From Corallococcus exiguus (GTDB taxonomy: Bacteria > Myxococcota > Myxococcia > Myxococcales > Myxococcaceae), in assembly GCF_017302975.1 (NCBI RefSeq), contig NZ_JAFIMT010000003.1: DNA of 64,000 nt. The stretch is one strand, 5' to 3'. Both the position numbers and the translations under genes were made by a program. This document shows positions 17,154 through 45,271 of this stretch, piece by piece; the first letter of the stretch is position 1; each line of letters starts with the position of its first letter. A model generated the notes under the pieces. It did not search any database and was not told where the DNA came from. It was given only the letters and a program-made list of their open reading frames with translations.

Positions 17154-17179
17154 AGCTTCCAACGGGGACAGCGGGACCG

Positions 17180-24256: not shown

Positions 24257-25145
24257 TCCGGGACGGCAGGCGCACGTCCCACGCCAGCCCCAGGGCCTGG
24301 AGCGCTCGGATGAAGAGCCAACCCGGGTCCCACTGCCACCACACCCAGCCGTGCCGCGCGGACGCGGGGAAGGCGTGGTGGTTGTTGTGCCAGCCCTCGC
24401 CCAGCGCGAGCACGCTCACCCACCACACGTTGCGGCTGTGGTCGCGCGTGTCGTGGACGCGCTTGCCGAACGCCGCGTGGCACACGGAGTTCACCGCGTA
24501 GGTGCTCTGCATCCAGCACACCACGGGCAGGAAGAAGTACGCGGGCACCGTGCGCCAGCCGAACGTCAGCCCCACGAAGAGCACCCCCAGCACCTGCGGC
24601 GCGATGCGGTAGCGCAGGAGCCAGTGGTAGTAGCCGTCTTCCGCCATGTCGCGGCACCAGGTGCGCCAGCCGTCCTCTTCCGTGGAGGACTCGTTGAGGA
24701 TCCACCCCATGTGCGCGTACCAGAAGCCGCGCAGCGGCGAGTGCACGTCCCCGTCCGCGTCCGCCTTCGCGTGGTGCAGCCGGTGGTTCGCGGCCCACAG
24801 GAGCGGACTGCCCTGCGCGGTGAGCATGGCCACCGACACCAGCGCGTACTCCACCCAGCGGGGGCACGCGAAGGCGCGGTGGCACAGGAGCCGGTGCAGC
24901 CCCACCGTCGTGCCCAGGCCAATGGACACGTACACGGCCAGCGCCACCGGCAGCGCGTACGGCGGCCAGGGCAGGAAGAACGCCAGCGCGGCCAGCCCGT
25001 GGACCACGAGCATGTAGATGACGATGACGGGACTGAGCTGGAAGCGGAGCGGTGCGGTGATCATGGCCCGGTGCGGAAGTCGAAGAAGAAGCACGCAGTC
25101 TAGGAGCCCCGCCTGACGGGACAAGGAATGCGTCCGGCGCGTCAC
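24234..25145 (-). CDS. acyl-CoA/acyl-lipid Delta9-type desaturase (DesC/stearoyl-CoA desaturase family)
   Basis: Family-diagnostic boxes GLHRLLCHRAF, ANHRLHH and GEGWHNNHHA. Two start options: GTG at 25145, which forms a GTGA overlap with the stop of the upstream cyclase gene, or ATG at 25067. Confidence 0.85.
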   Translation of the reverse strand: MTRRTHSLSRQAGLLDCVLLLRLPHRAMITAPLRFQLSPVIVIYMLVVHGLAALAFFLPWPPYALPVALAVYVSIGLGTTVGLHRLLCHRAFACPRWVEYALVSVAMLTAQGSPLLWAANHRLHHAKADADGDVHSPLRGFWYAHMGWILNESSTEEDGWRTWCRDMAEDGYYHWLLRYRIAPQVLGVLFVGLTFGWRTVPAYFFLPVVCWMQSTYAVNSVCHAAFGKRVHDTRDHSRNVWWVSVLALGEGWHNNHHAFPASARHGWVWWQWDPGWLFIRALQALGLAWDVRLPSRIRSGPAA

Positions 25146-28100
25146 ATCACGCGAGCGTCACGGGACCGGGAGGCCTGGGACGCCACGAGCGCCTCGACCG
25201 GCGGGGCCTGGAGGGTGGCCTGGAAGCGGTCCATGCGGCGCAGCTCCGCGCGGGCCTCCACCTCCGTGAAGATGGCGCGCGCTCGGGCGAGGAACTCCTC
25301 GCGCCGGTTCGGCAGCGCCACCGCCGCGTCGAAGTAGGCCACGCCCGTCTCCCAGCGGTTGGGGCTCTTCTCCAGGACGGCGATGGCCTCCAGGAACACC
25401 GGCTCCGCGGCCTTGGGCCCCTTGCGCAGGGCCAGCGAGCGCGCTGTCACGCGCAGCGCCGGGCCCTTCAGGTACGGATAGAGCCTCGCGATGACGCGCG
25501 CCTTGAGGCAGGACAGCCGCACGACCTTCAGCAGCTTCTTGCGCGGCACCACCGTGGCGCCCTCCTCCAGCGCGAAGAGGGCCGCCTCCGCCGCGTCCAC
25601 CAGCCCCACCTGGAGGAAGGGCACCAGCACCTGATAGCTCCAGATGCTCTCGAAGCAGCGCACCGCGACGAGCGCCGCCTCCTCCACCTGGTGCTCGCGC
25701 ACCGTGACGTTGGCCAGGTGGTTCAAGCTGGCGCACTGGTTGGCCAGGTCCGCCACCTCCTCGCTGATGCGCAGGCCCTGCTCCAGCTCCGCGCACAATT
25801 CGCCCACGTCACCTTCGCCCAACAGGTAGCGGCACATGGGCGCCCACGAGTGCGCCCAGCCCTGGTGCATCAGCGCGTTGAGCTCCACGCCAATGGTCCC
25901 CATCTGCTCGTAGAGCGCCACCGCCGTGCGGAAGCGCGAGTGGAGGAACTCGCCCGTGGCCTGCATCATCAGCGACGTCTGGCGCTCCCAGCGCTCGCCC
26001 ACCTGGCGCAGCGTGGAGACGGCCTCCTCCTGGAATTCGCGCGCGCGCTCCAGTTCGTTGGCGAAGAAGGCCTGGATGCCCAGGCGGCTGAGCGCGAGCC
26101 CCTCCGCCACCGGATCCTTGGAGCGGCGCGCGTACTCCAGCGCCTTCTCACAGTGGTAGCGCGAGCGCTTGAGCAACCCCGCGCCGAACAGGAGCGTGCC
26201 GTAGTAACCGCGCGCCATGCTCATGGCGTAGTCGTTGCGCGAGCGCTCCGCCATGTTGGTGGACACCAGCGTCGCCCAGGTGAGCTTGGTGATGTCCGCG
26301 AAGTAGTAGATGCGGATGAGCGAGTTGAGCGTGGACAGCTGCTGCAGGTAGTTGCCCAGCCTCGCCGCCGGCAGCGGGCGCAGGATGAAGGGCAGCAGCG
26401 TCGCGAGCCCCCGGAGCAAGAGGTTCGCCAGCGTGCGCAGGCCCAGCGCGGCCAGGCTCCCGGGGAGGCTGCGGCCCCTCAGCACCAGCGACTTCTCCAG
26501 GTGCTGCGTGGCGAGCGCGGACTCGCCCTTCTCCTGGTGCGCGCGGCCCAGGCCCAGGTGCAGCTCCGCCTGGAGCGGGGGCTCCTCCTCGTCCACCAGG
26601 CACTGCTCGAACATCAGGATGGCGTTGGCGTAGTGGCCCGCCTGGAGCAGCGTCTCCGCCAGCTCCTGCATCACCCGGCGCGTCTGGAGCAGCGTCACCT
26701 CCGGGTCCACCGGGACGACGGTGCCGAGCAGCTCCAGGCCCCGATTGTAGTGGTAGAGCGCGTCGTCGTTCGCGTACTGCGCCCGCGCGCTGCGGGCCGC
26801 CATCAGCGTGTACGCCAGGCCCTTGTCCTCCACGTTGCCCGCGAGGAAGTGGAACGCGAGCAGACCCGCGGAGCCCGCGAGGTTGTCGTTGGCGCGGGCC
26901 TCCAGGTAGCGCGCGAGCCGGCGGTGCAGGTCCTCACGCGCCGACACCAGCAGCGTGTTGTAGGCCACGTCGCGGATGACGATGTGCTTGAAGAGGCAGG
27001 TGTACGGCTCCTCCGTCTCCAGCAGGATGAGGCCCAGGCGCTGGAGCGTGTCCATGGCCTCGCGCAGCACGCCGTGCCCCAGCGTGGGCACCAGCGCCGC
27101 CACCGCGTCCAACGTGAAGATGCGCCCGATGACGGACGCCACCTTCACCACCAGCTTCTCCGTCTCGCTGAGCAGGTCGATGCGCGACAGCACCACGTCC
27201 TGGATGGAGTCCGGCAGCAGCAGGTCCTGGAGGCCGCGCTTCACCTCCATGCGCGGCGAGCCGGGCTCCACCGGGCCCAGGTAGCCCTGCTCCGCCAGGC
27301 CCTCCACGATGGATTCGATGAAGAACGGGTTGCCCTGCACCTTCGCGAGCAGCCGGTCCTCCAGCGCGACGTCCGGCGGCGACAGGCGCAGGTGCACGCG
27401 CAGGAGCGCCCGCGTGTCCTCTTCGTCCAGGCTCGTCAGATCCACCGGGACGAACTCCGGCAGGTCGCGCAGCCCGCGCAGCTGGTCGCCCGGGCGCATC
27501 GTGGCCAGCACCATGATGCGGTGCGAGCCCACGCGCACCGCCAGGTACTGGAGCAGGTCCAACGAGATGTAGTCCGCCCAGTGCAGGTCCTCGAAGAAGA
27601 GCAGCAGTGGCTGCGCGCGGCTGAGCTTCTCCAGGAGCTGGAAGATGATCTGGAACACCTTCTGCTGCTTGCGCCGCGCGTCCATCCCCGCCGTGGCGGA
27701 CGTCTCCTCCAGCGACATGCCGAGGATGCCCGCGACCACGGGAATCCACTCCGGCCCCACGTCCTCCAGGCCGTCCAGCCCCTGCCGCAGGCGCGCAAGC
27801 TGCGCCTCGGTGTCGTCCGAGTCGTGCAGACCGAAGGCCTGGAGCAGCACCTCCTTCCAGGGGAAGAAGGGGGTGAAGGCCTCGTAGGAGTAGCAGACGC
27901 CGTACAGCGCCCGGGCGCCGCCCTCCTCCGCGTCCTCCAGCACGCGCGCGCCCAGCCGCGACTTGCCGATGCCCGCCTCGCCGGACACCACGCTCACGCG
28001 GCCCTGGCCCGCGAAGGCCGCGGTGAGCGACGCGTGCAGCACGTTGAGCTCGCGGCTGCGGCCGATGATGTCGCCCCGACCCTTGATGAAGAGGCCTCGG

Positions 28101-29443
28101 CGCGTCTCCCCCAACAGCCGGTACACCGGCACCGAGCGCGAGACGCCCTTGAGCTTCGCGTCCTCCACGAACTCCGTGGAGAAGCCGCCCTGCTGCGAGC
28201 GCGACCGGGTGTTGGCGCACAGGTGCACGCCGTCCTGGCGTCCGCCGTGCGTCATCAGACGCGCGGCCATGTTCACGACCTCGCCCAGCGCCGAGTAGCC
28301 CTTGCGCGTGGGCGAGCCCATGTCCCCGCAGTAGGCGTGGCCGGTGGCGATGCCGATCTGCAGCTCATCCAGGAAGGGGAACTGCTCCCGGGCCTTGAGC
28401 AGCTTGCAGGCCAGCCGGCACGCCAGCACCTCCTTGTTCTGCTGGGCGGTGGGCGCGCCGAACAGGACGTAGAGCACGTTGCCCTTGTCCGTGAAGTCCG
28501 TCATCAGCAGCACGCCGCCGTGGTGGGCGGACTCGCGCTGGACGTATTCGTAGTAGGCGTTGAGGTCGTGGGTGAACGCGTCCGGATCCGTGTCCGCCCG
28601 CGCGTGGGTGAAGCGCACGAAGAAGCAGGTGACGTCGCGGAAGTCGCCCGCGAACTCCTGGTGCGCGGTGGTGATCTTCGTGAAGAGCACCGGGTGCAAA
28701 AGCAGCGCGCACCGGCCCACCAGCTCCGCCCCACCCGTGGGCGCGGGCAGCGGGCGCTTCACCGATTCCACCGGCGCGTCGAGCGCCAGCCGGTGGTTGC
28801 CGCCCTCGCGCGGCTCGCCCCTGCGCGCGGACTCCGGCAGCGCCGCCCAGGCGCGCGGGCTCAAGACGACCTCCGACACCGTGGCCTGCTTCTCCGCGCC
28901 CACCGCCTGCGCCAGCGGCTCTCCCACGAGCGCCGGGTGCATCCACAGGCCGGTGGTGCCCATCACGATGCGGGTGGCCTCACCAAAGCCGATGCCGATG
29001 CGCGACGACACGCCGAAGCGCTGGCCCAACAGCTCCAGCCGGGCGAAGCGCGCGAGCCTGCGCTGCACGCCCAGCGCGCACACCGCCGCTCGCTGCACGA
29101 CGTCCGCGTCCGCTTCCTCGGGCGCGGACTCGAAGCACGCGAGGATGGAGTCGCCGGCGAACTGGTAGATGTCCCCGCCGTGGTCGCGGACCACGTCGAT
29201 CATCTCCGTGTAGTAGTTCGTCAGCAGGCGCTGGAGCGCGTCGATGCCGCGAGGGCCCGCGCCGCTCAGCCCCACCACGATGGGCGTGAAGCCCGCGATG
29301 TCCAGCAGCAGGATGGCGCCCCGCACGCCCTCCGCCCGGGGCAGCGCGTCCGCATCCTGGCTCCCAAGCCGCGCGAGGATGGCCGCCGGCATGTACGGGG
29401 CCAGCATCGCGACAGCGGGATCGATGGGCTGCGTGGAGGGCAT
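25142..29443 (-). CDS. multidomain signalling protein: two class III adenylate/guanylate cyclase homology domains, an AAA/P-loop NTPase and C-terminal TPR/helical repeats
   Basis: CHD1 carries the metal-binding Asp motifs (LLDIAGFT, FAGDS). CHD2 lacks them but has the transition-state Asn/Arg motif (EVVNMAARL). Walker A GEAGIGKS, then a long TPR-like helical region. ATG at 29441-29443. Confidence 0.85.
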   Translation of the reverse strand: MPSTQPIDPAVAMLAPYMPAAILARLGSQDADALPRAEGVRGAILLLDIAGFTPIVVGLSGAGPRGIDALQRLLTNYYTEMIDVVRDHGGDIYQFAGDSILACFESAPEEADADVVQRAAVCALGVQRRLARFARLELLGQRFGVSSRIGIGFGEATRIVMGTTGLWMHPALVGEPLAQAVGAEKQATVSEVVLSPRAWAALPESARRGEPREGGNHRLALDAPVESVKRPLPAPTGGAELVGRCALLLHPVLFTKITTAHQEFAGDFRDVTCFFVRFTHARADTDPDAFTHDLNAYYEYVQRESAHHGGVLLMTDFTDKGNVLYVLFGAPTAQQNKEVLACRLACKLLKAREQFPFLDELQIGIATGHAYCGDMGSPTRKGYSALGEVVNMAARLMTHGGRQDGVHLCANTRSRSQQGGFSTEFVEDAKLKGVSRSVPVYRLLGETRRGLFIKGRGDIIGRSRELNVLHASLTAAFAGQGRVSVVSGEAGIGKSRLGARVLEDAEEGGARALYGVCYSYEAFTPFFPWKEVLLQAFGLHDSDDTEAQLARLRQGLDGLEDVGPEWIPVVAGILGMSLEETSATAGMDARRKQQKVFQIIFQLLEKLSRAQPLLLFFEDLHWADYISLDLLQYLAVRVGSHRIMVLATMRPGDQLRGLRDLPEFVPVDLTSLDEEDTRALLRVHLRLSPPDVALEDRLLAKVQGNPFFIESIVEGLAEQGYLGPVEPGSPRMEVKRGLQDLLLPDSIQDVVLSRIDLLSETEKLVVKVASVIGRIFTLDAVAALVPTLGHGVLREAMDTLQRLGLILLETEEPYTCLFKHIVIRDVAYNTLLVSAREDLHRRLARYLEARANDNLAGSAGLLAFHFLAGNVEDKGLAYTLMAARSARAQYANDDALYHYNRGLELLGTVVPVDPEVTLLQTRRVMQELAETLLQAGHYANAILMFEQCLVDEEEPPLQAELHLGLGRAHQEKGESALATQHLEKSLVLRGRSLPGSLAALGLRTLANLLLRGLATLLPFILRPLPAARLGNYLQQLSTLNSLIRIYYFADITKLTWATLVSTNMAERSRNDYAMSMARGYYGTLLFGAGLLKRSRYHCEKALEYARRSKDPVAEGLALSRLGIQAFFANELERAREFQEEAVSTLRQVGERWERQTSLMMQATGEFLHSRFRTAVALYEQMGTIGVELNALMHQGWAHSWAPMCRYLLGEGDVGELCAELEQGLRISEEVADLANQCASLNHLANVTVREHQVEEAALVAVRCFESIWSYQVLVPFLQVGLVDAAEAALFALEEGATVVPRKKLLKVVRLSCLKARVIARLYPYLKGPALRVTARSLALRKGPKAAEPVFLEAIAVLEKSPNRWETGVAYFDAAVALPNRREEFLARARAIFTEVEARAELRRMDRFQATLQAPPVEALVASQASRSRDARVM

Positions 29444-29996: not shown

Positions 29997-30527
29997 CTAG
30001 CGGGTGGCGGCCAGGAGGAACTCGGCCACCCGCTCCAGGGAGGTGGTGCGCTCGGCCTCCGCCGGGAAGCGCCGGAACAGCTCCGGTGGCCCGTGCAGGA
30101 TGAGCGGCTTGCCATAGCGCAAGGCCAGGACGGCCTCCGCGGCGGTGCCAGCGCCCCCGGGCAGCGCGACCAGGGCATGAGGCGTCAGCACGTTGATGTG
30201 GTTGCGGCTCATGGGGTCCGTGCCCTGCTCCCCGCTGAGCGGCAGGTGCGTGTAGATGGGGATTTCGATGTCCGTGTTGGGGTAGCCGGCCCGGGGCTGG
30301 TAACGGCCGTCCGCGCCCACGGTGCCGGGGATGATGCCGATGGCCGCCCCCCGCCGCCCCTCCACCTGGACGAAGGCGCCCGCCGCCGCGCTCATGACGC
30401 CGCCGCCCGCGCCGGTGAGCAGGTCGAACCCGGCCTCCGCGATCCACCGCGCCAGGGGGACGACCCACTCCTCGTGAGAGTGCGCCCCGGAGCCGAACAC
30501 TCCGATGATGCGGCGGTGTCTGCGCAT
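29997..30527 (-). CDS. LOG-family / TIGR00725-like Rossmann-fold protein (cytokinin riboside 5'-monophosphate phosphoribohydrolase-like)
   Basis: GGAGG SD 9 nt upstream of the ATG at 30527. IGVFGSG...GGGVM and PGGAGTAAE motifs are typical of the LOG/DprA-like Rossmann family. Confidence 0.75.
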   Translation of the reverse strand: MRRHRRIIGVFGSGAHSHEEWVVPLARWIAEAGFDLLTGAGGGVMSAAAGAFVQVEGRRGAAIGIIPGTVGADGRYQPRAGYPNTDIEIPIYTHLPLSGEQGTDPMSRNHINVLTPHALVALPGGAGTAAEAVLALRYGKPLILHGPPELFRRFPAEAERTTSLERVAEFLLAATR

Positions 30528-31162: not shown

Positions 31163-31555
31163 ATGGGTCTCGCCGAACGGTCGGAAATGGCCGCGTTCAA
31201 GAAGGACACCTTCGACGCGAAGGTGGCGGAGCTGAAGGAGGCCGCGGCGGGCGCGGACATCCAGGTGACGCTGGACGAGGCGAGCTTCAGCACCGTGGCC
31301 GCCATCCAGATGCTCTCCAACGGCGTCTTCGACCGGCTCATCGACGACATGAAGTCCGTCTGCGGCGACGCCATCGGAAAGCAGGCCGTCCGGGAAGGCA
31401 TCCAGACGTTGCACATCGTCCACAAGGACGCGCCGGGCTTCACGCTGGAGCTGACGGACGGCACGCTCACCCTGCGCGCGAAGGTGGACGGCTCCCTCGG
31501 CGAGGACCTGCCGGGCTACGGCCAGTACCGGGCCTTCCTGCTGAAGAAGCTGTAG
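31163..31555 (+). CDS. hypothetical protein
   Basis: ATG at 31163. Lys/Asp/Glu-rich protein-like composition, clearly different from GC-driven shadow ORFs. Followed by a hairpin. Confidence 0.6.
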   Translation: MGLAERSEMAAFKKDTFDAKVAELKEAAAGADIQVTLDEASFSTVAAIQMLSNGVFDRLIDDMKSVCGDAIGKQAVREGIQTLHIVHKDAPGFTLELTDGTLTLRAKVDGSLGEDLPGYGQYRAFLLKKL

Positions 31556-31628: not shown

Positions 31629-34600
31629 TCAGGGCACGTCCAGCACGACGCCCTGCCCCGGGACGGCCATCACCCAGCGGACGACGTCGGGCTTGCCGCC
31701 GCAGGTGACGCGCACCTCGAACTCGCGCCCCGCGGGCATCTGGTTGGACAGGGGCGTCTGGCCCTCCAGCACCTGCGAGCCCAGCGCCACGCGGCAGCCC
31801 TGGGCACCGGTGATGCTGAGCATGCCCCGGGCCTCCGCCTGGGGCGGGGCGTCCGCGAGCGTGCGCAGGTCGATGTGCTCCGACTTCGGCACCTTGCCGA
31901 AGCGGTGCAGCTTGCCGTCCACGGCCGTGGAGATGAGCCAGCCGGTGTTGCCTTCGGGCAGGCCCTGGCTCGCATCCAGCAGGACGCCGGACACGTAGAC
32001 GCGCTCGCCCTCCTGGGCGTTGCGCACCTCCACGCCGCCCTTGGGCAGCAGGAACACCAGCGCGAGCCCCGCGAGCACCAGGCCCACGCCGCCCACGATG
32101 AGCCCCTTGCGCTGACCGGGCGTCATCCCCTTCCCCGTCGCTTCGGCGGCGGGCGCTGAAGCCGCGGGGGAGACCGCGTGGACTGGTGGGGCCGGCGGCG
32201 CGGCCACGGGGGCCGCCGGAGGCCGCGCGGGCGGAGCCACGGGAGCGGACACGGGCGGAGCATGCGGGGCAGCCACGTGCGGCGGCGGCGCGGCCACGGG
32301 AGGGTGTCCCCCATAGGCCGCGTGGGAGCCGGTCGGCGGCGGCGCATGGTGCCCCAGCGGCGGCTGCGGGGCGCTTCCCTGCTGCGCGTGGGCAGCCCCG
32401 TATTGCGCGTGGGTGCCCCCATGCGACGGGGGCGCTGCCACGGGGTGCGGCTGCGGAGCCGCGGTCAGGGGGGCGACGGAGGGCACCGCCACCGACGGAC
32501 GCGCGGGCGCCTGCGGCGGAGGCCCCACGCGCGTGGGCACGTTGGCGGACGCCGCGGGGCGCACCGCGGTGGGCGGCGGCAGCGGCGAGGCGGGCGGAGG
32601 CGCTGCCGGGCGCGACGGACGGGGGGCGGCGGCCACGGGCGGTGCCACCGGAGGCGCGGCGGCCACGGGCGGCCCGTTGACGGAGACGACCTCGGTGCCG
32701 CGCTCGGCGGGCTCCGGCGGGGAGGCCACCGGGGGCGGCTCCATCCGGGGCATGCTGCCGGAACCGCCGCGCACGGGCGGCCGGGACAGGTCCGAAGGGG
32801 CCCGCATGTCGCTGCCCGAGCCCGTGCCCACGTTGCGCGAGTGCGAGCCCGTGCCCGGCATCAGCGCCCGGGGGTTGGAGCCCGTGCCCGGGCCGGCGAT
32901 GGACGACGGCGCGTACTCGGAGAGCCGGTCACCCAGCGCCTCCTTGAAGAACTGCGCCACCGACGCGGGCGACGAGGACAGCCGGTGGTGCGCGATGACG
33001 GCTTCAATCTCCTCGCGCATCGCCGCCGCGGAGGGCGTGCGCCGCGCCGGGTCCTTCACCAGCGCGCGCAGGATGAGGTCCGACACGTCCTGCGGGATGT
33101 GGGGCCGCAGCTGCGAGGGCACCGGCGCGGGCTCGCGCACGATGGCCGCGAGCGTGGCCGCGTCATGGTCCCTGCGGAACGGCAGCTGGCCGGTGAGCAG
33201 CTCGAAGAGCACCACGCCCAGCGCGAACACGTCGTTGCGCCAGTCCAGCGGGCGGCCGCTGGCGGCCTCCGGGGAGAGGTACGAAATCTTCCCCTTGATG
33301 ACGCCCGCCTGCGTGTGCTCCTCGCCCTGCACCTTGGCGATGCCGAAGTCCGACAGCTTGATGGCGCCGTCCAGCGACACCAGCACGTTGTGGGGGCTGA
33401 CGTCGCGGTGCACCACCGGGTGCGCCGTGCCGGAAGGGTCCACGTAGCTGTGCGCGTAGTGCAGGCCCGCGGCCACCTCCGCCACGATGCGCAGCGCGTG
33501 CTCCAGCGGCAGCGCCATGCCCTTGCGGCGCAGCTCCGTGAGCAGGCGCTTCAGGTCCGGGCCGCGCACGTACTCCATCAGGATGTACGCCACGCCGTCC
33601 GTCACGCCCACGTCGAAGGTCTGCACGACGTTGGGGTGCGTGAGGCGCGCGTTGGCGCGGGCCTCCGCGAAGAGCATGTCGACGAACTCAGGATTCTCAG
33701 CGAACTGCGCGAGAATCTTCTTCATCACCACGAACTTCTCGAAGCCCTTCACGCCCTGCTGCTTGGCGAGAAACACTTCCGCCATGCCGCCCTGCCCCAG
33801 CCGGCGGATGATCTGCAACCGCGCGCCGCTGGTGTGCGTGTCCGTGGCTGACGAGCCCCGGGCGCCGGGGTCCGTGTTGGTGGAGCCGAAGAGGTACTGG
33901 CTGAGCGCGCGCTGCTCCAGCGCCTCGATGTCCTCCAGCGGCTTGTCCGTGAGCGGCGTGCGCGCGAGCAGCCCCTGGAACTGCGCGAGCGCCGGGGCCC
34001 GGGCGTTGCCGCCGCAGACGGGGCACACGCGCTCCATGGTGCCCTTGGCGCGCAGGACTTCCAGGTACTCGGAGGTCTGGATGCGCTGGTGGGTGACCTG
34101 GCCGCAGTTGCGGCAGTCGCACGGCAACCACAGCGTGGCCAGCTTCGCGGGCAGCGTCTTGGTGGACTTCGCCAGCACGGCCAGCAGCGGCGGCGGCACG
34201 CGGCAGAGCACCACCTGGGCGCCCTGCGCCGCCACCTCCAGCACCTGTTCGATGCGCGGCAGCGCTTCCTGCTCCACCACGCTCACGTGGCAGCAGTCGA
34301 ACGCGACACGCCCCTCCAGGCCGGACGCCAGCCGGCGCACGTTGAGGTCGCCCTTGAGCGTGCTGGCCAGGGTGATGAAGGTGATGTCGTCCTGGACGAT
34401 CTTCAGGTGCGACGCGAGCTCGGACGGCTCGGACGGGATGCCGGAGCGCAGGTAGCGCAGCACCGCGGGATCCACCGCGGAGAACTGCTGGCGGCGCGCG
34501 AAGTCGAAGAACTCCGTGGGCTCGTCCGCGAACTCCAGCGGCTGGGAGCACACCGGGCACTGGTGCGGCGGGGCCCCGCCCTGCTCCAGCACCTTCGCCT

Positions 34601-34976
34601 CCTCCACCAGGCGGACCAGCCGCAGCCGGTCCTCCTTGCAGAAGCGGCACGTGTACGGCGCCAACAGGGAGAGCACGCGCGCGACGCCCGCGAAGCCCTC
34701 CACCATGTTGAGCTGATCCACCACCACCGGCGGCGCGTTGACGACGTACAGCCCCGACACGCCCTGCGGCGGGTGGCCGGCGAACTCGATCCACCGGCGC
34801 ACGCCGAAGGAGCTGATCCGCTCCACCAGGCCCAGGTCCACCACCACCAGGCCCTGGATGCCCTTGGAGGCTGGCGAGAGGGGGAAGGTTTCGTCGATCA
34901 CCCCGGCCACGCGCACGTGGGTCAGACTGCCCACGCGCAGGGAGGTGATGCTGGCATTGGAAGTTTGGCTCTCCAC
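31629..34976 (-). CDS. Ser/Thr protein kinase (Hanks type): two N-terminal STAS-like domains each followed by a Cys4 zinc ribbon, then kinase domain, Pro/Ala-rich linker, one TM helix and a C-terminal extracytoplasmic domain
   Basis: Kinase subdomains GQGGMAEVFLAKQ, VMK, HRDVSPHNVLV, DFGIA and SPE. Zinc ribbons CRFC..CPVC and CDCRNC..CPVC. TM helix LIVGGVGLVLAGLALVFLL. Start assigned to a GTG, which I place at about 34976 with an uncertainty of roughly 1 nt. That GTG is preceded by GAGGG and lies 4 nt after the stop of the upstream gene. The track start at 35057 would overlap the upstream gene by about 77 nt. Confidence 0.85.
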   Translation of the reverse strand: MESQTSNASITSLRVGSLTHVRVAGVIDETFPLSPASKGIQGLVVVDLGLVERISSFGVRRWIEFAGHPPQGVSGLYVVNAPPVVVDQLNMVEGFAGVARVLSLLAPYTCRFCKEDRLRLVRLVEEAKVLEQGGAPPHQCPVCSQPLEFADEPTEFFDFARRQQFSAVDPAVLRYLRSGIPSEPSELASHLKIVQDDITFITLASTLKGDLNVRRLASGLEGRVAFDCCHVSVVEQEALPRIEQVLEVAAQGAQVVLCRVPPPLLAVLAKSTKTLPAKLATLWLPCDCRNCGQVTHQRIQTSEYLEVLRAKGTMERVCPVCGGNARAPALAQFQGLLARTPLTDKPLEDIEALEQRALSQYLFGSTNTDPGARGSSATDTHTSGARLQIIRRLGQGGMAEVFLAKQQGVKGFEKFVVMKKILAQFAENPEFVDMLFAEARANARLTHPNVVQTFDVGVTDGVAYILMEYVRGPDLKRLLTELRRKGMALPLEHALRIVAEVAAGLHYAHSYVDPSGTAHPVVHRDVSPHNVLVSLDGAIKLSDFGIAKVQGEEHTQAGVIKGKISYLSPEAASGRPLDWRNDVFALGVVLFELLTGQLPFRRDHDAATLAAIVREPAPVPSQLRPHIPQDVSDLILRALVKDPARRTPSAAAMREEIEAVIAHHRLSSSPASVAQFFKEALGDRLSEYAPSSIAGPGTGSNPRALMPGTGSHSRNVGTGSGSDMRAPSDLSRPPVRGGSGSMPRMEPPPVASPPEPAERGTEVVSVNGPPVAAAPPVAPPVAAAPRPSRPAAPPPASPLPPPTAVRPAASANVPTRVGPPPQAPARPSVAVPSVAPLTAAPQPHPVAAPPSHGGTHAQYGAAHAQQGSAPQPPLGHHAPPPTGSHAAYGGHPPVAAPPPHVAAPHAPPVSAPVAPPARPPAAPVAAPPAPPVHAVSPAASAPAAEATGKGMTPGQRKGLIVGGVGLVLAGLALVFLLPKGGVEVRNAQEGERVYVSGVLLDASQGLPEGNTGWLISTAVDGKLHRFGKVPKSEHIDLRTLADAPPQAEARGMLSITGAQGCRVALGSQVLEGQTPLSNQMPAGREFEVRVTCGGKPDVVRWVMAVPGQGVVLDVP

Positions 34977-34980
34977 CCGC

Positions 34981-35823
34981 CTACCCTCGTTCCAGACTGA
35001 ACAGCAGCGACTTGGGCTGCGAGGCCCGGCGGCGAGCGTCGCCCAGGTCCACGCCACACGCGAACTGCGTGCGCTTTCCCGGAGTCACCCGCACCGCTAC
35101 CACGTCGCTGTGCTCCAGGATGCGCCGCAGACCCAGGCCCGCGCCACCACCCGAAGCATCCACCTGCGCCTTCTCACCCCAGGCCTTCACCACCCGCACC
35201 AGCGGTGACACCGACAGGCGGCCGAAGCGATCCGTCGCCTCCAGCCACGCCCGGCCGTCCGCCACCGCCCACGACACCAGGCAACGGTCTTCATCCGCCA
35301 CCGACTGCACCTGGCCGCGCCGGTGGGCGTACTTCGGCTCGCCGCTTCCGTCCACTGGCGCATCGAGCAGCGCGTTCACGCCAATCTCATGGACGACATC
35401 CGCCACCCGGCTGGCCGCGCCCTTGGAGCCGCCAGCCTGGAGGACGGCCTCGGCCGCGCGCTCGCCCACGGCCGTCACCTCCGCCACGCTGCCCAGCCAC
35501 GCCACGGACGTGGCGGCCTCCTGGGGGATCATGGGCTCGCCGCGCAGGAGCGCGCTCAGCAGCCGCGCCTCCCAGGCGGACGGCTGGCCGCCCTCGCGGG
35601 TGGCCAGCAGCAGCGCCGGGGGACGGCGCTCCAGGAGCGCGGCGTGGGCGGGAGTGAACCGCCCGTCGAACAGCACCAGCTGCGGCGCCGCGTCGTCACC
35701 GCGCCCCAACAACAGGCCGTCCCGGGCCAGCACTCCGGAGGCCTTCTCCAGCGCCTCCGGCGTGAGCGTCGTGTCCGGCGTCAACTTCAGGGGAGCATCC
35801 TTCACGGCGGCGACGGTATCCAA
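34981..35823 (-). CDS. GHKL/HATPase_c-type ATP-binding protein resembling anti-sigma-factor serine kinases (RsbW/SpoIIAB-like)
   Basis: The C-terminal half carries an N-box-like VHEIGVNALLDA, a G1-like DRFGR and a G2-like GGGAGLGLRRILE. Starts 8 nt after the TonB receptor stop. Its stop lies 4 nt before the kinase GTG, and the kinase SD sits inside its last codons. Confidence 0.6.
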   Translation of the reverse strand: MDTVAAVKDAPLKLTPDTTLTPEALEKASGVLARDGLLLGRGDDAAPQLVLFDGRFTPAHAALLERRPPALLLATREGGQPSAWEARLLSALLRGEPMIPQEAATSVAWLGSVAEVTAVGERAAEAVLQAGGSKGAASRVADVVHEIGVNALLDAPVDGSGEPKYAHRRGQVQSVADEDRCLVSWAVADGRAWLEATDRFGRLSVSPLVRVVKAWGEKAQVDASGGGAGLGLRRILEHSDVVAVRVTPGKRTQFACGVDLGDARRRASQPKSLLFSLERG

Positions 35824-35831: not shown

Positions 35832-38375
35832 CTAATAATGGAGTCGAACTTCTGTGAAGACACCCAGCGGCGGTGCGGGGAAGCCGTGGGACTCCTCGTA
35901 CTTCGCGTTGAAGAGGTTCGTGCCCAGCAGTGACACCGCCACGCGCTCGTGGACGTTGAAGCCCACACGCGCGGTCGCGGTGATGTAACTGGGCAGCTTC
36001 ACGCGGGTGGTGGTGCCGGCGTTCTCGTCCACCACGAAGCCCGGATCATACCGGGCGCCCACGAACAGGCCGTAGAGCTCCACGAAGGCGAACTTGCCGA
36101 TGTTGGTGCGGCCGCGCAGGTAGACGCGGTGGCTGGGCGCGTAGTCCAGCGGGTAGCCGGACCCGCCGCCCACCGGCAGCGCCTGGGCGTCCAGGAACTG
36201 GTAGGCCACGTCGAAGGACGAGTTGAGGGACGGCACCTGCGCCGCCGCTTCCGCCTCGAAGCCCGCCACGCGCGCGTCGCCCAGGTTCTTGAACTGGGAC
36301 GTGGAGCCGAAGAGGAGCTCCTGATTGATGAAGTTGCGGGCGCGGTTGTAGAAGCCCGTGCCCGTCAGGCGCACCCTGCGGTCCAGCGGCCAGAAGTCCA
36401 CCGCCGCCTCCACCGTGTCCAGCGTCTCCGCGCGAAGGGACGGGTTGCCCAACAGCGTCGCGGCGTACATCTGCTGGTTGATGGCCAGCTCCGCCAGCGT
36501 GGGCGCGCGGAAGGCGCGGCCGTAGTTGGTGCGCAGCGTGAGCAGCTCCGGGATGGCATGGAACACGACGCTGGCGCGCGGGGACACCTGATCCGTCTTC
36601 GCCTCCCAGACCTTGGCGGGGATCTGGTAGTTGTCGTAGCGAGCGCCCGCGCCCACCACCAGCCGGTCCGTGATGCGGTACTCCGCGTCCACGAAGCCGC
36701 CCAGGATGGTCTGCTGGGTGTCGTCCAGGGTCAGGCCGGGCAGGATGTTCTGGTTGTTCACCTGGTCGGCCTTCACGTCGCCGCCGACGGTGACGGAGAG
36801 CTTGTCCAGGGAGAACAGCGCGCGCGCCTCACCGCCCAGGCGGCTGCGCTTGCCCAGCGTGTCCTCCAGGGCGCCGGTGATTTCATTCTCCAGCGTCACG
36901 TTGCGGCGCTTGAAGAAGGCGTAGGCCTGGGCGAACACGCGCACGTGGTCCGTCACCTGCTGATCCAGCTGCAGGGCGGCGTTCAGGTTCTGGACGTGCT
37001 CGTTGTCCTGCGCGGTGTAGTGGCAGCGGCCGCAGTTGCCCACGGTGGAGATGTTCTGACCGCCGGGCCGGCCGATGTTGCCATCCGTGAAGTCCGCGTC
37101 CAGCGCGAGGGGGCCCACGCGGACCTTGCCGTTCACCTGGTGGACCAGCGAGTCCTCGTTGGTGTCCGTCTGGTTCAGCTGCGGGTTGTTGAAGAGCTGC
37201 GGGCCGTCCGAGCCGAAGCCGTAGTAGCCGAGCAGCGCCTCCACCGGGCCGCCGCGGCCGGCGACGTTGGTCTGCAGGCGCCAGGTCTTGTCCTGGCCCG
37301 CGAGGATGCGCGCGTCGGCGCCCACGTTCTGGCCCTTGGCGATGAGGTCCGCGGGCTGGCGCTCGATGATGTTGATGACGCCGCTGAAGGCGTTGGAGCC
37401 GTAGAGCGACGAGCCCGGGCCGCGGATGACCTCCACCTGCTTCAGGTTGGTGAGCGGCGTCGTCTCATCCGCGTAGAACTGGCCCGTCCAGGGGTCCGTC
37501 AGCGGACGGCCGTCCTTGAGGAGCAGCAGGCGGTTGGACAGGTAGTTGGAGCCCAGGCCGCGCGCGCTCACCGCCGCCTTGCGCATGGAGCCCCGGCGGC
37601 ACTCCATGCCGGGGAAGTACTGGATGGCCTCGCAGAGCGAGAACTGGCCGGTGCCTTCCAGTTCCTCCGCGGGAATCCAGGACACCGTGAGGGGCACGTC
37701 GGAGATGCGCTGGCTGCGCTTGGACGCCGTGGTGACGACGGCCTCGCTCAGCGCCCGGTTGATGTTCTGCTCCAGGTCGTCGCCACCGCCCAGGTCCGGG
37801 CCGTCCAGGCCGGAGAGGCTGGAGGGCGGCGGCAGCGCGCGGTCGGTGGTGGGCTCCGTGAAGGGCGCGCGGTCCGGGACGTTGTCCGCCGTGCGCGGCT
37901 GCGACGACGGCAGCATCGCGCCGGTCCCCAGCGCCGGCGCGGGCGGCGGGTTGGACGGGATGTCCGACGTCAGCGGCCCGTCATACGGCGACGGCGAGGC
38001 CACGGGCAGCGGATCCGAAACGGACGGACCCGGGCCGGCCATGGGGGCGGGAGGCGTGGGCGGCGGCTCGGTGGCGAGCGCCGGCTCCTGAGGCGAGACG
38101 GGCTCGTCCCCGGGAACGTGCTCCACGTCCGTCGGAGGGGGCTGGGCCTTCGCGCCCCGGCGCGTCTTCGCCGTGCGCGGAGGCTTGGCGCCGGGCGTGG
38201 CGGCCTTGGCACCCGGCGTCGTGGCCTTGGCGCCCGGCGTGGTGGCCGCGCGCTTGCGGGCGGCCTTGGTCCGCGTCTTGGGGGCGGGCTCCTGGGCCTC
38301 CTGGGCCTGGGCAGTCTCCACCGCGAAAAGGGACAGTGCGCAGACCACCAGGGTCAGGCACGCGCGCGCGCCCAT
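35832..38375 (-). CDS. TonB-dependent outer-membrane receptor with a ~190-aa Pro/Ala/Lys-rich N-terminal extension
   Basis: Signal peptide MGARACLTLVVCALSLFAVETAQA (alternative ATG at 38435). Plug-domain motifs (DVPLTVSWI, RGPGSSLYGSNAFSGVINI). 22-strand barrel with a C-terminal aromatic end (...FTEVRLHY). Confidence 0.85.
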   Translation of the reverse strand: MGARACLTLVVCALSLFAVETAQAQEAQEPAPKTRTKAARKRAATTPGAKATTPGAKAATPGAKPPRTAKTRRGAKAQPPPTDVEHVPGDEPVSPQEPALATEPPPTPPAPMAGPGPSVSDPLPVASPSPYDGPLTSDIPSNPPPAPALGTGAMLPSSQPRTADNVPDRAPFTEPTTDRALPPPSSLSGLDGPDLGGGDDLEQNINRALSEAVVTTASKRSQRISDVPLTVSWIPAEELEGTGQFSLCEAIQYFPGMECRRGSMRKAAVSARGLGSNYLSNRLLLLKDGRPLTDPWTGQFYADETTPLTNLKQVEVIRGPGSSLYGSNAFSGVINIIERQPADLIAKGQNVGADARILAGQDKTWRLQTNVAGRGGPVEALLGYYGFGSDGPQLFNNPQLNQTDTNEDSLVHQVNGKVRVGPLALDADFTDGNIGRPGGQNISTVGNCGRCHYTAQDNEHVQNLNAALQLDQQVTDHVRVFAQAYAFFKRRNVTLENEITGALEDTLGKRSRLGGEARALFSLDKLSVTVGGDVKADQVNNQNILPGLTLDDTQQTILGGFVDAEYRITDRLVVGAGARYDNYQIPAKVWEAKTDQVSPRASVVFHAIPELLTLRTNYGRAFRAPTLAELAINQQMYAATLLGNPSLRAETLDTVEAAVDFWPLDRRVRLTGTGFYNRARNFINQELLFGSTSQFKNLGDARVAGFEAEAAAQVPSLNSSFDVAYQFLDAQALPVGGGSGYPLDYAPSHRVYLRGRTNIGKFAFVELYGLFVGARYDPGFVVDENAGTTTRVKLPSYITATARVGFNVHERVAVSLLGTNLFNAKYEESHGFPAPPLGVFTEVRLHY
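38184..38246. repeat. 3 x 21-bp perfect-period tandem repeat inside the TonB receptor N-terminal extension
   Basis: Units cttggcgccgggcgtggcggc / cttggcacccggcgtcgtggc / cttggcgcccggcgtggtggc, encoding (A/T)TPGAK x3 on the minus strand. Degenerate copies flank it. Confidence 0.7.
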
Positions 38376-38670
38376 CCGACCGGCAAACCCCTTCACCACG
38401 TTGGTGCGCGATCCACCGTACTCAGTCGAGTCCATCGTTCTCAATTCCACGAGGGGAAGCAGGGGGTGTCCGCGGTCGTTGCGCCAGGATCAGAGCCGGT
38501 GTGACTGGCAATCGTTCTCAGGGGCGAGTTTCCACCCCTGAACGGTGGCGTTCCGCTCGACTTCTCAAATTACCGCAATAACTCGCCTTAGGCCAAGTCA
38601 TGGCTGTCGATCCCGGTGAAACACGCGCACGGCGGCGAAAACACCGTGCGCGGCTCAGCCCACGCCGCAA

Positions 38671-39597
38671 TCAGTCATCCGGCTGTTCGGCGGAGACAGC
38701 CAGGTCGTCCACGAATGGCGGCAGGGCAGGACCCAGCGACTCGGATTGGACGAGCACGGGGGTCTCCACCCGAAGGTCGGGCGAGTCCGCGAGGACGGGC
38801 TGACGGCGCGGGGGGCCCTGGGTGACGAGCTTGCGGAAGTCCTCGAACTCGCGGCCCTGGATGCGGGCGAAGGCGTCGAACGGGGCGACCGCACCCACGG
38901 AGGACAGGGACTGGGACAACGCGTCTCCCCCGCCCTTCAGGTCCACCAGCACGGCGCCCGGCACCCGGCTGCTCTTGAAGAGCACCCGCATGTCCTTGGG
39001 CACGTGCGCCACCGGCACGAGCGCGGCCTCCGCGCCCTTGGCCTCCAGCATCTTCACCGCCGACTCCACGTTGGGCACCGGCACCAGCTTGAAGTGCTTC
39101 TGGGCATCCAGGTCACCGCCCAGCACGACGTGGGAGACGAACTTCGGATCCGCGGAGCCCGCGCCCTTGACCAGCGCCATGCGCTTGCCGGCCAGGTCCT
39201 TCACGGTGCCCTTCTGGAGGGAGATGATGGCCCAGCGCTGCTGCGTCTCACCGGCGCGCGGCGCGTACGCCACCGGCTCCGCCTTGGAGCCCAGCTGCAC
39301 CGCGGCCCAGCCGTCCACCACGGCGAAGTCGATCTGCCCCTCCCCCACCGCCTTGGAGAAGTCCTCGTAGCGGCCAAAGCTCTTGGCGCCAACGGGGCGG
39401 CCCAGGCTGGCCTCCAGCTTCTGGGCGAGCGCCTCCGCGTACTGGAAGCGCTCCTGACCGTCCGACAGCGTGGTGGCGAGGAACACGCCCAGCGTGGCCT
39501 TCTTCGGAGCGGCGGCCGCGGGGCTGGCGACGGAAACGGCGAACAGCACGGCGGCGAGCAGGAGGCTCCCCCGCGCGACAAGGGATGGCGTCTTCAC
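38671..39597 (-). CDS. PhnD/SsuA/transferrin-type periplasmic substrate-binding protein (phosphonate/phosphite-binding-like)
   Basis: Signal peptide MKTPSLVARGSLLLAAVLFAVSVASPAAAA. The sequence (LGVFLATTLSDGQERFQYAEALAQKLEASLGRPV...) has a class II binding-protein fold pattern. Its start overlaps the TPR gene stop (ATGA). Confidence 0.75.
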   Translation of the reverse strand: MKTPSLVARGSLLLAAVLFAVSVASPAAAAPKKATLGVFLATTLSDGQERFQYAEALAQKLEASLGRPVGAKSFGRYEDFSKAVGEGQIDFAVVDGWAAVQLGSKAEPVAYAPRAGETQQRWAIISLQKGTVKDLAGKRMALVKGAGSADPKFVSHVVLGGDLDAQKHFKLVPVPNVESAVKMLEAKGAEAALVPVAHVPKDMRVLFKSSRVPGAVLVDLKGGGDALSQSLSSVGAVAPFDAFARIQGREFEDFRKLVTQGPPRRQPVLADSPDLRVETPVLVQSESLGPALPPFVDDLAVSAEQPDD

Positions 39598-42107: not shown

Positions 42108-42115
42108 GCGGTTCG

Positions 42116-43708: not shown

Positions 43709-44261
43709 GGGCGCGATGACCGTGCTCGTGGGCTCCGTCGGCGGCAGCCCCACCGAGCCCGTCAGCCGGGTGGCCGTGTTCTCCCCGCGCAGCCCGGTGA
43801 GCTCCCGGGAATGGGTGCCGGTGTACTCCGGAGGAGGAGGCGGGGTGCCGGGCGCAGCATCGGATGCATCAGGTGATTCGGGCACGGGGTCGAGGCGCGT
43901 GTTCGTACGGGACAAAGGCACACCTGGGGGAGCCCGCGTCGGAAGTACGCGGTCGGAGCGGGGCGGACTGTATCTCACTTCCTGATTGACGCGAGGAGTC
44001 CACCTGTCAGGCGATTCCTCGCGGGCGCCCCCTCCCCCGCCCCCCCAACGGCCGTGCGATCAGCCCGGACCCGGAGCGTCCAACCGCCTCCTGGAAGCAG
44101 CACGTCACGAGGGCATGGATGAGTTCCGCTCATTGCCGCGTCGCGCTACCCGGGGGCCGAAAGGTGATGGCGAACACCCGTGACATCAGGGTCCTTGAGT
44201 CGGGAGGCCGCGTTCGGAGTATAGGGGCGTCCCTTTCTTTCCCCTTCGAGGTCGTCCGCCC
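43709..44261. promoter_or_regulatory. divergent intergenic region between the phosphatase gene string and the BCKAD E1 genes
   Basis: A 550-bp non-coding gap that contains a C-rich tract (ccctcccccgccccccc). Promoters are not assignable by eye. Confidence 0.3.
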
Positions 44262-45269: not shown

Positions 45270-45271
45270 CC

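Follow-up and report, generated by a model that had tools for sequence, protein, structure and literature searches.

What does an antagonist-type STAS domain do when it forms the head of a membrane-anchored protein kinase? The question is raised by a gene at positions 31629..34976 (minus strand, as are all features below) of a 64,000-nucleotide window from Corallococcus exiguus, which the open reading frame, domain searches, and a protein match define as encoding a 1,115-aa product with the order STAS-ZnR-STAS-ZnR-Hanks kinase-linker-transmembrane (TM) helix-extracytoplasmic tail. On balance, we favor the reading in which the gene product, with its STAS domains, is the output component of a partner-switching-type phospho-switch conserved in Myxococcota, with a phosphorylatable STAS domain fused to a Hanks kinase output. 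The strongest argument for a phospho-switch, missed in the initial annotation, is that an adjacent RsbW-like kinase gene and a SpoIIE-type phosphatase gene belong to the same conserved cluster.

The open reading frame begins at GTG 34976, 4 nt behind the upstream gene (stop at 34981). Over its full length, the translated 1,115-aa protein is identical to WP_206883409.1 ("protein kinase [Corallococcus exiguus]"); thus, the annotated start is the one that takes in the STAS region, and the kinase does not begin at a codon further downstream, an outcome that the initial annotation had named as a possible objection. In 80 genome loci, and in 146/150 representative clusters counted at 50% identity, the N-terminal region and the kinase are joined in one uninterrupted protein. 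Orthologues of the gene itself are present in 80 loci, and by gene order only, the protein is probably the orthologue of Myxococcus xanthus MXAN_4557. At 50% identity, homologues sharing the domain order therefore make up no fewer than 146 clusters; the architecture, previously described as unusual, is indeed unannotated but not rare.

Immediately upstream lies a "hypothetical" gene of 280 aa (34981..35823), the MXAN_4558 orthologue. Its product combines an N-terminal alpha/beta domain (residues ~12 to 110) with an RsbW/SpoIIAB-type GHKL serine-kinase domain (residues ~113 to 277), the Bergerat (GHKL) fold of which is nearest to SpoIIAB/RsbW and not to the CA domains of histidine kinases. When the ATP-binding motifs, the N-box (E-x3-N) and the G-box, were checked across 24 homologues sharing 41 to 97% identity, E146, N150, D198-x-F-G201, and G225-G-G-A-G-L-G231 proved invariant. 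The protein is a SpoIIAB/RsbW/SiaB-type serine-kinase fold with both boxes intact. Neither the window protein nor the 24-member alignment gave a sequence match in Pfam, NCBIfam, or the PDB, and only fused GHKL homologues gave weak HATPase_c or HATPase_c_2 matches (E = 0.01 to 0.15). Standard models miss this RsbW-like neighbor as well as the tandem STAS-ZnR module. Searches of the literature found nothing on MXAN_4557 or MXAN_4558.

Four further genes, placed in part by synteny, extend the cluster. A TonB-dependent receptor with a signal peptide, the MXAN_4559 orthologue (35832..38450; Pfam Plug and TonB_dep_Rec_b-barrel; PMC3222651), is followed by a periplasmic PhnD-like substrate-binding protein with a signal peptide (38671..39597; Pfam Phosphonate-bd, E = 6.7e-11) and a secreted TPR-repeat protein recognized by domain search and sequence reading (39594..42119). 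The last, an inner-membrane sensor phosphatase (42116..43978; Pfam SpoIIE, E = 2.3e-38, and HAMP), is laid out as a TM helix, a periplasmic domain of ~155 aa, a second TM helix, HAMP, and a SpoIIE-type PP2C domain. Both TM helices and the PPM motifs GDVTGHG, YTDG, and DDIT can be read from the sequence. Its best NCBIfam match is SiaA, far below the SiaA cutoff. Gene order makes it the orthologue of MXAN_4562, reported as the sole SpoIIE-like phosphatase of M. xanthus (PMC2887360).

Together, the phosphatase, TPR, binding protein, TonB receptor, GHKL, and STAS-kinase genes form one conserved same-strand cluster, the order of which, PP2C-TPR-PBP-TBDR-GHKL-kinase, is unchanged in all Myxococcaceae and Archangiaceae loci of sufficient length. 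Reduced versions also occur (PP2C-GHKL-kinase in L064 and PP2C-TPR-PBP-GHKL-kinase in L073), and SpoIIE-domain genes adjoin family members in two other loci (L082 and L084). The PP2C gene lies four genes upstream of the GHKL gene and may be a separate transcription unit; the cluster contains a 220-nt gap and a terminator-like hairpin (38648..38665), which does not exceed chance expectation. Because the conserved neighbors are the kinase and phosphatase types that flip such switches, the locus looks like an undescribed form of control over a eukaryote-like kinase.

It is unlikely, in our estimation, that the locus is a classical switch whose output lies elsewhere. The RsbW-like protein would then serve as an anti-sigma factor or block a different, unlinked target, and the STAS-kinase would be only its membrane-tethered sequestering antagonist, with the Hanks domain as an extra input or a parallel output and not the regulated enzyme. 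This arrangement would follow the canonical partner-switch logic (PMC8256260); in structure, the upstream protein is most similar to true anti-sigma factors (SpoIIAB, UsfX, and RsbW), and its extra N-terminal domain could bind another partner. However, no sigma factor is found among the genes examined, from 22.6 to 46.9 kb of the window, and STAS is covalently fused to the kinase in at least 146 clusters and once to a kinase plus GHKL, which speaks for the kinase being part of the switch. Fusions of the RsbW-like domain to the STAS-kinase are seen in distant relatives: P0186 carries two STAS-ZnR units, a kinase, and a C-terminal GHKL-like domain (E = 2e-19), and in its 484-aa neighbor, a GHKL-like domain (E = 1e-13) is paired with one STAS-ZnR unit (E = 2e-8). 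Elsewhere, the STAS-Cys4 unit is found alone and fused to Hanks kinases, RsbW-like kinases, and FIST proteins. We infer that the fused Hanks kinase is the target of the switch.

The Hanks-type Ser/Thr kinase domain, reported as complete in the initial annotation, spans residues 388 to 653 (33018..33815) and matches Pfam Pkinase well above the cutoff (E = 1.2e-41; 143 bits versus 31.7). Its motifs (GQGGMAEV, VVMKK, EARANARL, HRD, DFG, and SPE) supply the Gly-loop, beta3 Lys, alphaC Glu, HRD Asp, DFG, and [AS]PE elements, and the domain shows zero substitutions among nine Corallococcus proteins. The lysine of the catalytic loop (HRDxKxxN) is missing: the window protein reads HRDVSPHN, and most of the 150 family representatives read HRD-[VI]-[ST]-P-x-N, with K in one only. 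Because Ser replaces this Lys, the catalytic competence of the domain is not certain.

Less likely still is that the Hanks domain phosphorylates its own STAS domains, in cis or across a dimer, the GHKL protein being a noncatalytic partner or unrelated. Precedent for such chemistry comes from Mycobacterium tuberculosis PknD, described as phosphorylating the anti-anti-sigma homologue Rv0516c (Greenstein 2007, as cited in PMC2877116). Several family members also have no RsbW-like or PP2C gene within ~8 kb (L081; L068, L069, and L077; several Archangium and Cystobacter paralogues), and all of these retain the serine and the [T/S]-S-F-G motif, a point for this explanation and against the favored one. 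On the other hand, every SpoIIAB-type ATP-binding and catalytic motif of the GHKL protein is invariant, and the cluster conserves a SpoIIE-type phosphatase, a class specialized for phospho-STAS substrates. Moreover, even at protein identities of only 27 to 33%, the GHKL gene stays beside the kinase gene in most loci of Kofleriaceae.

The N-terminal region itself consists of an internal duplication of a "STAS plus Cys4 ribbon" unit, all of it cytoplasmic. STAS domain 1 (residues ~8 to 108; 34653..34955) carries the motif D47-L-x-x-V-x-R-I-[T/S]55-S56-[F/Y]-G58-V-R-x-W62, in which Ser56 (codon 34809..34811) is the predicted phospho-acceptor, equivalent to SpoIIAA Ser58 by conservation, alignments, and modeling. 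Across 147 family sequences, Gly58 and Trp62 are invariant (147/147), and Ser56 (146/147) and [T/S]55 (145/147) nearly so. The initial annotation had placed both serines of ERISSFG at the phospho-serine site of RsbV/SpoIIAA; two alignments agree that only the second, Ser56, occupies it. When the profile is aligned to 4hyl, an antagonist from Haliangium, Ser56 falls on the second S of "MSSAG," the phospho-Ser58 position; hhalign to SpoIIAA gives the same position, and Gly58 aligns with Gly60 in both. In the structure model, helix alpha2 of STAS1 begins at residue 56.

STAS domain 2 (residues ~188 to 286; 34119..34415) is a duplicate of STAS1 according to blastp of module 1 against module 2 (E = 9e-7), hhalign of the two profiles (99% probability; E = 2.3e-18), and column counts. 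The acceptor serine is retained by STAS1 only; position 236 of STAS2 is Q in the window protein and P, A, D, or E in the family. Structure prediction and a fold search assign the N-terminal region to STAS, as first proposed, and not to an unrelated fold. The top 16 Foldseek matches are all antagonists (probability, 1.0; target-normalized TM score, 0.59 to 0.68), although these matches belong to the N-terminal model as a whole, which was built from a 12-sequence alignment with moderate confidence (pLDDT 74), and not to STAS1 or STAS2 individually. Sequence models respond weakly: the window protein scores 18.6 bits against Pfam STAS_2 (gathering cutoff, 29.2), and at an E value of ≤0.1, 11 of 37 family members match STAS and 8 match STAS_2 (best E, 5.9e-4). 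Some orthologues carry a precomputed PF01740 match.

Each STAS domain is followed by a Cys4 zinc-ribbon-like element. Element 1 (34527..34652), C110-x2-C113-x26-C140-x2-C143, keeps its cysteines in 144 to 147 of the 147 sequences and gives weak Pfam zinc-finger and rubredoxin-like matches; element 2 (33993..34118), C288-x2-C291-x26-C318-x2-C321, is recognized by cysteines kept in 132 to 138. The initial annotation had recognized both sets, but the spacings of x25 and x28 given for them were not correct, since both read C-x2-C-x26-C-x2-C. In "CDCRNC," the conserved pair is C288/C291, whereas C286 is not conserved.

The least likely explanation is that STAS-ZnR is not a phospho-switch at all but a structural, dimerization, or ligand-binding module (for a nucleotide, anion, or lipid, as in SLC26 or MlaB STAS domains), the conserved serine being structural and the gene neighborhood reflecting co-regulation only: the STAS1 profile does score best against a transporter STAS that is not phosphorylated at that site (prestin, E = 6.5e-4), STAS2 lacks the serine, and Pfam STAS scores are subthreshold, but the top structural neighbors are phosphorylatable antagonists, Ser56 is conserved more strictly than most core residues, and the cognate kinase and phosphatase types both occur in the cluster and recur in fusions.

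Under the favored phospho-switch reading, the RsbW-like kinase would dock on the tandem STAS module and phosphorylate Ser56, and the sensor phosphatase, prompted by a signal from the envelope or periplasm, would strip this phosphate. Whether STAS1 is phosphorylated, and with this whether the RsbW-like protein is bound or released, would gate the activity of the fused Hanks kinase or its access to substrate. Such steps would amount to a STAS switch fused to the enzyme under its control. STAS2 and the two zinc ribbons are probably nonphosphorylatable docking or dimerization surfaces. More tentatively, STAS-Cys4 could represent a new mobile signaling module through which a partner switch directly gates a Hanks-type kinase, converting an envelope signal into on/off Ser/Thr phosphorylation. 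If so, a cryptic RsbW-like kinase and the one SpoIIE-type sensor phosphatase that Myxococcus-type bacteria have would act through STAS-Cys4, the signal would perhaps be a ligand that the TonB-dependent receptor and the periplasmic binding protein of the cluster handle, and two phospho-signaling systems hitherto treated as separate would be joined.

The cluster shares its three component types with the SpoIIE/SpoIIAB/SpoIIAA and RsbU/RsbW/RsbV modules of Bacillus, including the SpoIIE-type PP2C phosphatase and a STAS domain bearing a serine at the SpoIIAA Ser58 position. In contrast to those modules, it has no sigma factor gene; its STAS domain is not free but duplicated, capped each time by a Cys4 element, and joined to a Hanks kinase that is anchored in the membrane; an additional alpha/beta domain of ~110 aa is present at the N terminus of its RsbW-like protein; and sequence similarity falls below Pfam and NCBIfam thresholds. 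STAS switches that control an enzyme have precedents (PMC13555669 and PMC8457831). In Anabaena PCC 7120, HenR/Alr3423/All4160 is described by its authors as a "partner-switching-like" module acting on an enzyme and not on a sigma factor (PMC13555669). Like the STAS-kinase, All4160 has a phosphorylatable STAS fused to the regulated enzyme, with a state that depends on a PP2C phosphatase and on a distinct kinase. In Anabaena the output is a glycosyltransferase, whereas in myxobacteria it is a Hanks Ser/Thr kinase; one N-terminal STAS is reported for All4160, compared with two STAS-Cys4 units here; and gene clustering with TBDR, PBP, and TPR envelope components is particular to the myxobacterial system. 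The SiaA/SiaB/SiaC system of Pseudomonas aeruginosa, acting on SiaD (PMC8457831), likewise has an enzyme and not a sigma factor as output, and SiaA matches the phosphatase in its TM-periplasmic-TM-HAMP-PP2C architecture; the combination of an equivalog-level phosphatase match to SiaA and a DUF1987 SiaC partner was not found.

Fusions of STAS (COG1366) to eukaryote-like kinases (ELKs) were noted in Sorangium cellulosum in 2010, with an ELK-linked function suggested (PMC2887360). The same study regarded STAS proteins as scarce in M. xanthus and named no clear partner for its single SpoIIE-like phosphatase (PMC2887360). The STAS-kinase fusion as such is therefore already known; the Sorangium fusions are visible by COG or Pfam, unlike the tandem STAS-ZnR module and the RsbW-like neighbor.

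Beyond the kinase domain, a Pro/Ala-rich, low-complexity linker (residues ~690 to 950; 32127..32909; P+A = 48%), identified by composition, repeat scan, and alignment, leads to a single TM helix located by hydropathy scan (residues 959 to 977; LIVGGVGLVLAGLALVFLL; 32046..32102). Both had been predicted, with dimensions that need revision: the stretch from kinase to TM helix is ~300 aa and not ~200 aa, and the extracytoplasmic C-terminal region (31632..32045) is 138 aa and not ~190 aa. Every full-length homologue has a TM anchor, and those of Kofleriaceae and Polyangia stop 1 to 5 aa past the helix. The tail may end in a PEGA-like domain (last ~70 aa; 31632..31841), a weak sequence-based assignment: the window protein's own tail has no PEGA match at an E value of ≤1, and among orthologous tails, 7/10 match PEGA (PF08308), three of them above the gathering score of 20.8 bits. 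The linker DNA had been described as highly repetitive and possibly variable in length between strains. It is low in complexity but contains no tandem array, with a best TRF row of a 15-nt unit in 4.4 copies (58% match) and two 20-nt copies 30 nt apart. Length variation does occur, making the linker an indel hotspot: orthologues range from 1,103 to 1,164 aa with a constant C terminus, and every indel among the nine near-identical Corallococcus proteins falls at residues 767 to 930.

The window encodes together a PP2C phosphatase, an RsbW-type kinase, and a STAS domain with an acceptor serine, the three kinds of component that make up a partner switch, and the STAS domain and a Hanks kinase form a single polypeptide. 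The gene for this last protein (31629..34976, minus strand; hereafter the STAS-kinase) begins at a GTG codon located 4 nt past the stop of the upstream gene. Its 1115-aa product is identical over the full length to WP_206883409.1, a "protein kinase [Corallococcus exiguus]." The G+C content of the window is ~70%, and long spurious ORFs are therefore common in it. A GTG at 35057 was rejected as an alternative upstream start because it entails a 77-nt overlap with the upstream gene and because the product from GTG 34976 is the exact RefSeq match. Pfam places only a kinase domain at residues 388 to 653 (E = 1e-41) and a subthreshold STAS_2 match at residues 42 to 90 (18.6 bits versus a cutoff of 29.2).

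The N-terminal 385 residues have relatives at 80 fetched genome loci, and the kinase domain is contiguous with them in every case. Identity to the window protein over this region is 83 to 97% in Corallococcus, ~70% in Myxococcus and Pyxidicoccus, 58 to 67% in Archangium, Cystobacter, and Hyalangium, and 27 to 33% in Kofleriaceae and Polyangia MAGs. After rescoring with an HMM of the N terminus only, the STAS-zinc-ribbon (STAS-ZnR) module was present in 146 of the 150 best representative clusters at 50% identity; these were the best of 815,596 matches, mostly kinases, to a search profile of 610 positions that includes kinase columns. Because the STAS region is contiguous with the kinase across loci and clusters and the annotated protein matches exactly, the kinase start does not lie downstream of the STAS region. 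Thus, the reading of the initial annotation, in which a kinase that includes the STAS region starts at the GTG near 34976, is borne out, homologues carrying module and kinase together do exist, and the feature is real, with an interpretation that is supported and extended here.

The proposed STAS fold was also recovered, rather than an unrelated one, when the predicted structure of the N terminus was searched with Foldseek. All of the best 16 matches were anti-sigma antagonists (probability, 1.00; target-normalized TM score, 0.59 to 0.68). At the sequence level, a profile of STAS1 only matched STAS chains in the PDB, including the prestin STAS domain (E = 6.5e-4) and the Haliangium antagonist 4hyl (E = 3.8e-3). 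The best PDB match of a STAS2-only profile was 4hyl with an E value of just 0.77; homology to STAS1 and the structural model point to a STAS domain here as well. Modules 1 and 2 align by blastp over 126 residues, both Cys pairs included (E = 9e-7), and hhalign of the STAS1 and STAS2 profiles gave a probability of 99% (E = 2.3e-18); by these comparisons, the two modules are an internal duplication. Each STAS domain is followed by C-x2-C-x26-C-x2-C, with C110/C113/C140/C143 kept in 144 to 147 and C288/C291/C318/C321 in 132 to 138 of 147 sequences. The Cys pattern, along with weak zinc-finger matches, suggests that these Cys4 elements bind zinc.

Across the 147 sequences, STAS1 displays the motif D-L-x-x-V-x-R-I-[T/S]55-S56-[F/Y]-G58-V-R-x-W62, in which S56 is present in 146 and G58 and W62 are each present in all 147. 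The "YMSSAG" of 4hyl pairs with "ritSfG" in an HMM alignment, and hhalign against Bacillus subtilis SpoIIAA set S55/S56/F57/G58 on D57/S58/S59/G60. An hhalign comparison of the STAS1 profile with RsbV gave nothing informative. Residue 56 starts helix alpha2 in the predicted model. Together, the 4hyl and SpoIIAA alignments and this helix start put the second serine of "ERISSFG" at the phospho-Ser58 position of SpoIIAA, and the earlier placement of the SS pair at the phosphoserine site holds for that serine, S56. The equivalent STAS2 position, 236, is Q in the window protein and P, A, D, or E across the family; STAS1 alone looks phosphorylatable.

Adjoining the STAS-kinase gene is a gene for a 280-aa protein (34981..35823, minus strand), an MXAN_4558 orthologue annotated as "hypothetical." Searches of Pfam, NCBIfam, and the PDB (phmmer and profile searches) retrieved no match, and its RsbW-like identity was recognized solely through the predicted structure. 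Its N-box residues E146 and N150 do not vary among 24 homologues, nor do D198-x-F-G and G225-GGAGLG231; residues 12 to 110 constitute an additional alpha/beta domain. Four further genes lie upstream on the same strand, encoding a TonB-dependent receptor orthologous to MXAN_4559, a PhnD-like periplasmic binding protein, a secreted TPR protein, and the PP2C phosphatase (42116..43978). The last has a TM-periplasmic-TM-HAMP-SpoIIE (PP2C) architecture, and its best NCBIfam match is SiaA, far under the cutoff of that model. From gene order, it is the orthologue of MXAN_4562, reported as the sole SpoIIE-like phosphatase of M. xanthus (PMC2887360). A promoter and terminator scan of the cluster yielded nothing above chance. 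We note a hairpin resembling a terminator, with a T-run behind it (38648..38665, minus strand), right after the PhnD-like stop; 220 nt separate that gene from the one for the TonB-dependent receptor, and the hairpin lies in this gap. The cluster could thereby comprise two transcription units, but such sites are no commoner in the region than in shuffled sequence.

We consider it probable that these proteins form a switch. The RsbW-like kinase would phosphorylate Ser56, the sensor phosphatase would reverse this modification upon an envelope signal, and the phosphorylation state would gate the Hanks kinase, on or off. The six-gene order is kept in all sufficiently long Myxococcaceae and Archangiaceae loci, and reduced clusters consist of PP2C-GHKL-kinase (L064) or PP2C-TPR-PBP-GHKL-kinase (L073). 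A GHKL-family HMM found the GHKL gene in 65 of the 80 loci, and most Kofleriaceae loci have it directly upstream of the kinase, though the kinase N terminus is only 27 to 33% identical. Counterexamples exist, and the serine is kept in all of them: L081 carries two family kinases in tandem and neither a GHKL nor a PP2C gene within 8 kb, and second STAS-kinase copies in Archangium and Cystobacter have no GHKL neighbor. Fusions occur at one locus, L084. Its family protein P0186 combines two STAS-ZnR units and a kinase with a C-terminal GHKL-like domain (E = 2e-19), and a neighboring 484-aa protein joins a GHKL-like domain (E = 1e-13) to a single STAS-ZnR (E = 2e-8). Adjacent genes encode a stand-alone 157-aa STAS-ZnR ORF and a HAMP-HisKA-HATPase-REC-SpoIIE protein. 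Judging from these domain matches, the L084 fusions tie the STAS-kinase, GHKL, and related components together. In a rival reading, which we regard as unlikely, the RsbW-like protein controls a target encoded elsewhere, a sigma factor or another protein. Next in rank, and also improbable, is phosphorylation of the STAS by its own Hanks domain; the action of PknD on Rv0516c sets a precedent. Least probable is a purely structural or ligand-binding role for the STAS units, to be set against the near-invariant S56.

The L084 record (Logan SRR17284924 contig) holds a dense STAS-ZnR cluster at 7983..18815, including a second STAS-kinase of 719 aa, and its 484-aa protein has a possible receiver domain. 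At L082, a SpoIIE gene is followed by a 2489-aa FIST protein with a STAS-ZnR module and then by another family kinase. The FIST protein (415..8001) has four FIST/FIST_C repeats with the double module at residues 1862 to 2178; in the adjoining kinase, P0167, the kinase domain precedes the STAS module. A Phosphonate-bd (PhnD-like) gene (666..1580 of L085) is directly upstream of a distant STAS-kinase, P0200, and this recurrence hints that a PhnD-like binding protein belongs to the signaling unit. In a 2.7-kb ENA contig, P0006 opens with STAS1-ZnR1 and an incomplete STAS2, at 66% identity to the window across the first 57% of the query. Next come a hydrophobic segment and then STAS and cNMP_binding domains of the canonical Pfam kind; the protein may reflect real domain shuffling or an assembly chimera.

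The Hanks domain has the full usual motif set except in the catalytic loop (33400..33440 region, minus strand; residues ~517 to 524), which reads HRDVSPHN instead of HRDxKxxN. Of the 150 family representatives, most have S or T in place of the Lys and a single one retains it; a literature search for "HRDVSP" gave nothing relevant. No kinase domain substitutions occur among nine Corallococcus proteins, and by this measure the domain is under strong constraint. Between kinase and TM helix lie ~300 residues (P+A, 48% over residues 690 to 950). The initial description of this linker as highly repetitive DNA was rejected, as the DNA is of low complexity, with only short, weak repeats and no tandem array. 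Its expected variation in length between strains was confirmed: every indel among nine near-identical proteins (1109 to 1116 aa) falls within a hot spot at residues 767 to 930. Corallococcus orthologues measure 1103, 1112, 1115, and 1164 aa with identical tail length. Among the 80 draft-genome contigs, about 20 stop 746 to 912 codons into the gene, within the linker (L003 to L013, L017, L025, L034, L041, L044, L053, L057, and L064), and many database entries are "partial"; the Pro/Ala-rich linker systematically breaks short-read assemblies. A single TM helix (residues 959 to 977) is followed by 138 residues, the final ~70 PEGA-like. PF08308 was matched in 7 of 10 orthologous tails (3 above threshold) and not in the window tail. 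Kofleriaceae and Polyangia homologues stop 1 to 5 residues past the TM helix; thus, the conserved core is the doubled STAS-ZnR, the kinase, and a membrane anchor, and by this comparison the Myxococcaceae/Archangiaceae lineage acquired the outside domain later.

Myxobacteria possess about a hundred Hanks-type kinases, and to our knowledge the activating input is known for almost none. The resemblance of the window cluster to Bacillus partner switches is a proposed way of working; unlike them, it has no sigma factor, and its components fall under family-model thresholds. The two closest functional analogues are SiaABCD (PMC8457831) and HenR/Alr3423/All4160 of Anabaena, in which the STAS domain forms one protein with the glycosyltransferase under its control (PMC13555669). 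If the switch reading is correct, this would join SiaABCD and HenR/All4160 as the third case in which partner-switch logic governs an enzyme and not a sigma factor, and it would be the first whose controlled enzyme is itself a protein kinase. It would also define a STAS-zinc-ribbon module that is missed by current domain libraries and carried by at least 146 protein clusters. A paper of 2010 mentioned STAS-ELK fusions in Sorangium, and whether SpoIIE-like phosphatases oppose eukaryote-like kinases was left open (PMC2887360). The STAS-kinase locus offers a concrete, testable answer: the PP2C shares a conserved cluster with a previously unrecognized RsbW-like kinase and with a Hanks kinase whose STAS domains had gone unrecognized. 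Literature searches turned up no account of the tandem STAS-ZnR module, of the RsbW-like MXAN_4558 family, or of the six-gene cluster, and nothing relevant for MXAN_4557/4558.

Two records are probably mislabeled or contaminated. L022 (BNCN01000007.1, titled Comamonas sp. KCTC 72670) is a 520-kb contig with a full Myxococcus-type cluster, ~70% identical to the window like the Myxococcus loci, and L023 (labeled Corallococcus terminator BB12-2) is only 70% identical versus 89% for C. terminator strain L008. A 130-aa ORF convergent to the STAS-kinase (31163..31555, plus strand) matches no family, and tblastn found a counterpart in one Corallococcus locus only (L001, 74%). Just upstream of the PP2C gene, overlapping genes (44130..45287 and 45251..46891, minus strand) encode 385- and 546-aa proteins with no match in Pfam, NCBIfam, or the PDB. 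In Cystobacter (L046, L048, and L052), a paralogous STAS-kinase without an RsbW-like neighbor has homologues of both (58 to 67% identity) directly upstream, and these two genes may be further components tied to the family. Downstream of the STAS-kinase are genes for a 1433-aa adenylate/guanylate cyclase-AAA_16-TPR protein (25142..29443, minus strand) and a SLOG/LOG-like ("LDcluster4") protein (29997..30527, minus strand), which also follow the kinase in Corallococcus and Hyalangium loci (e.g., L002, L006, L039, and L049).
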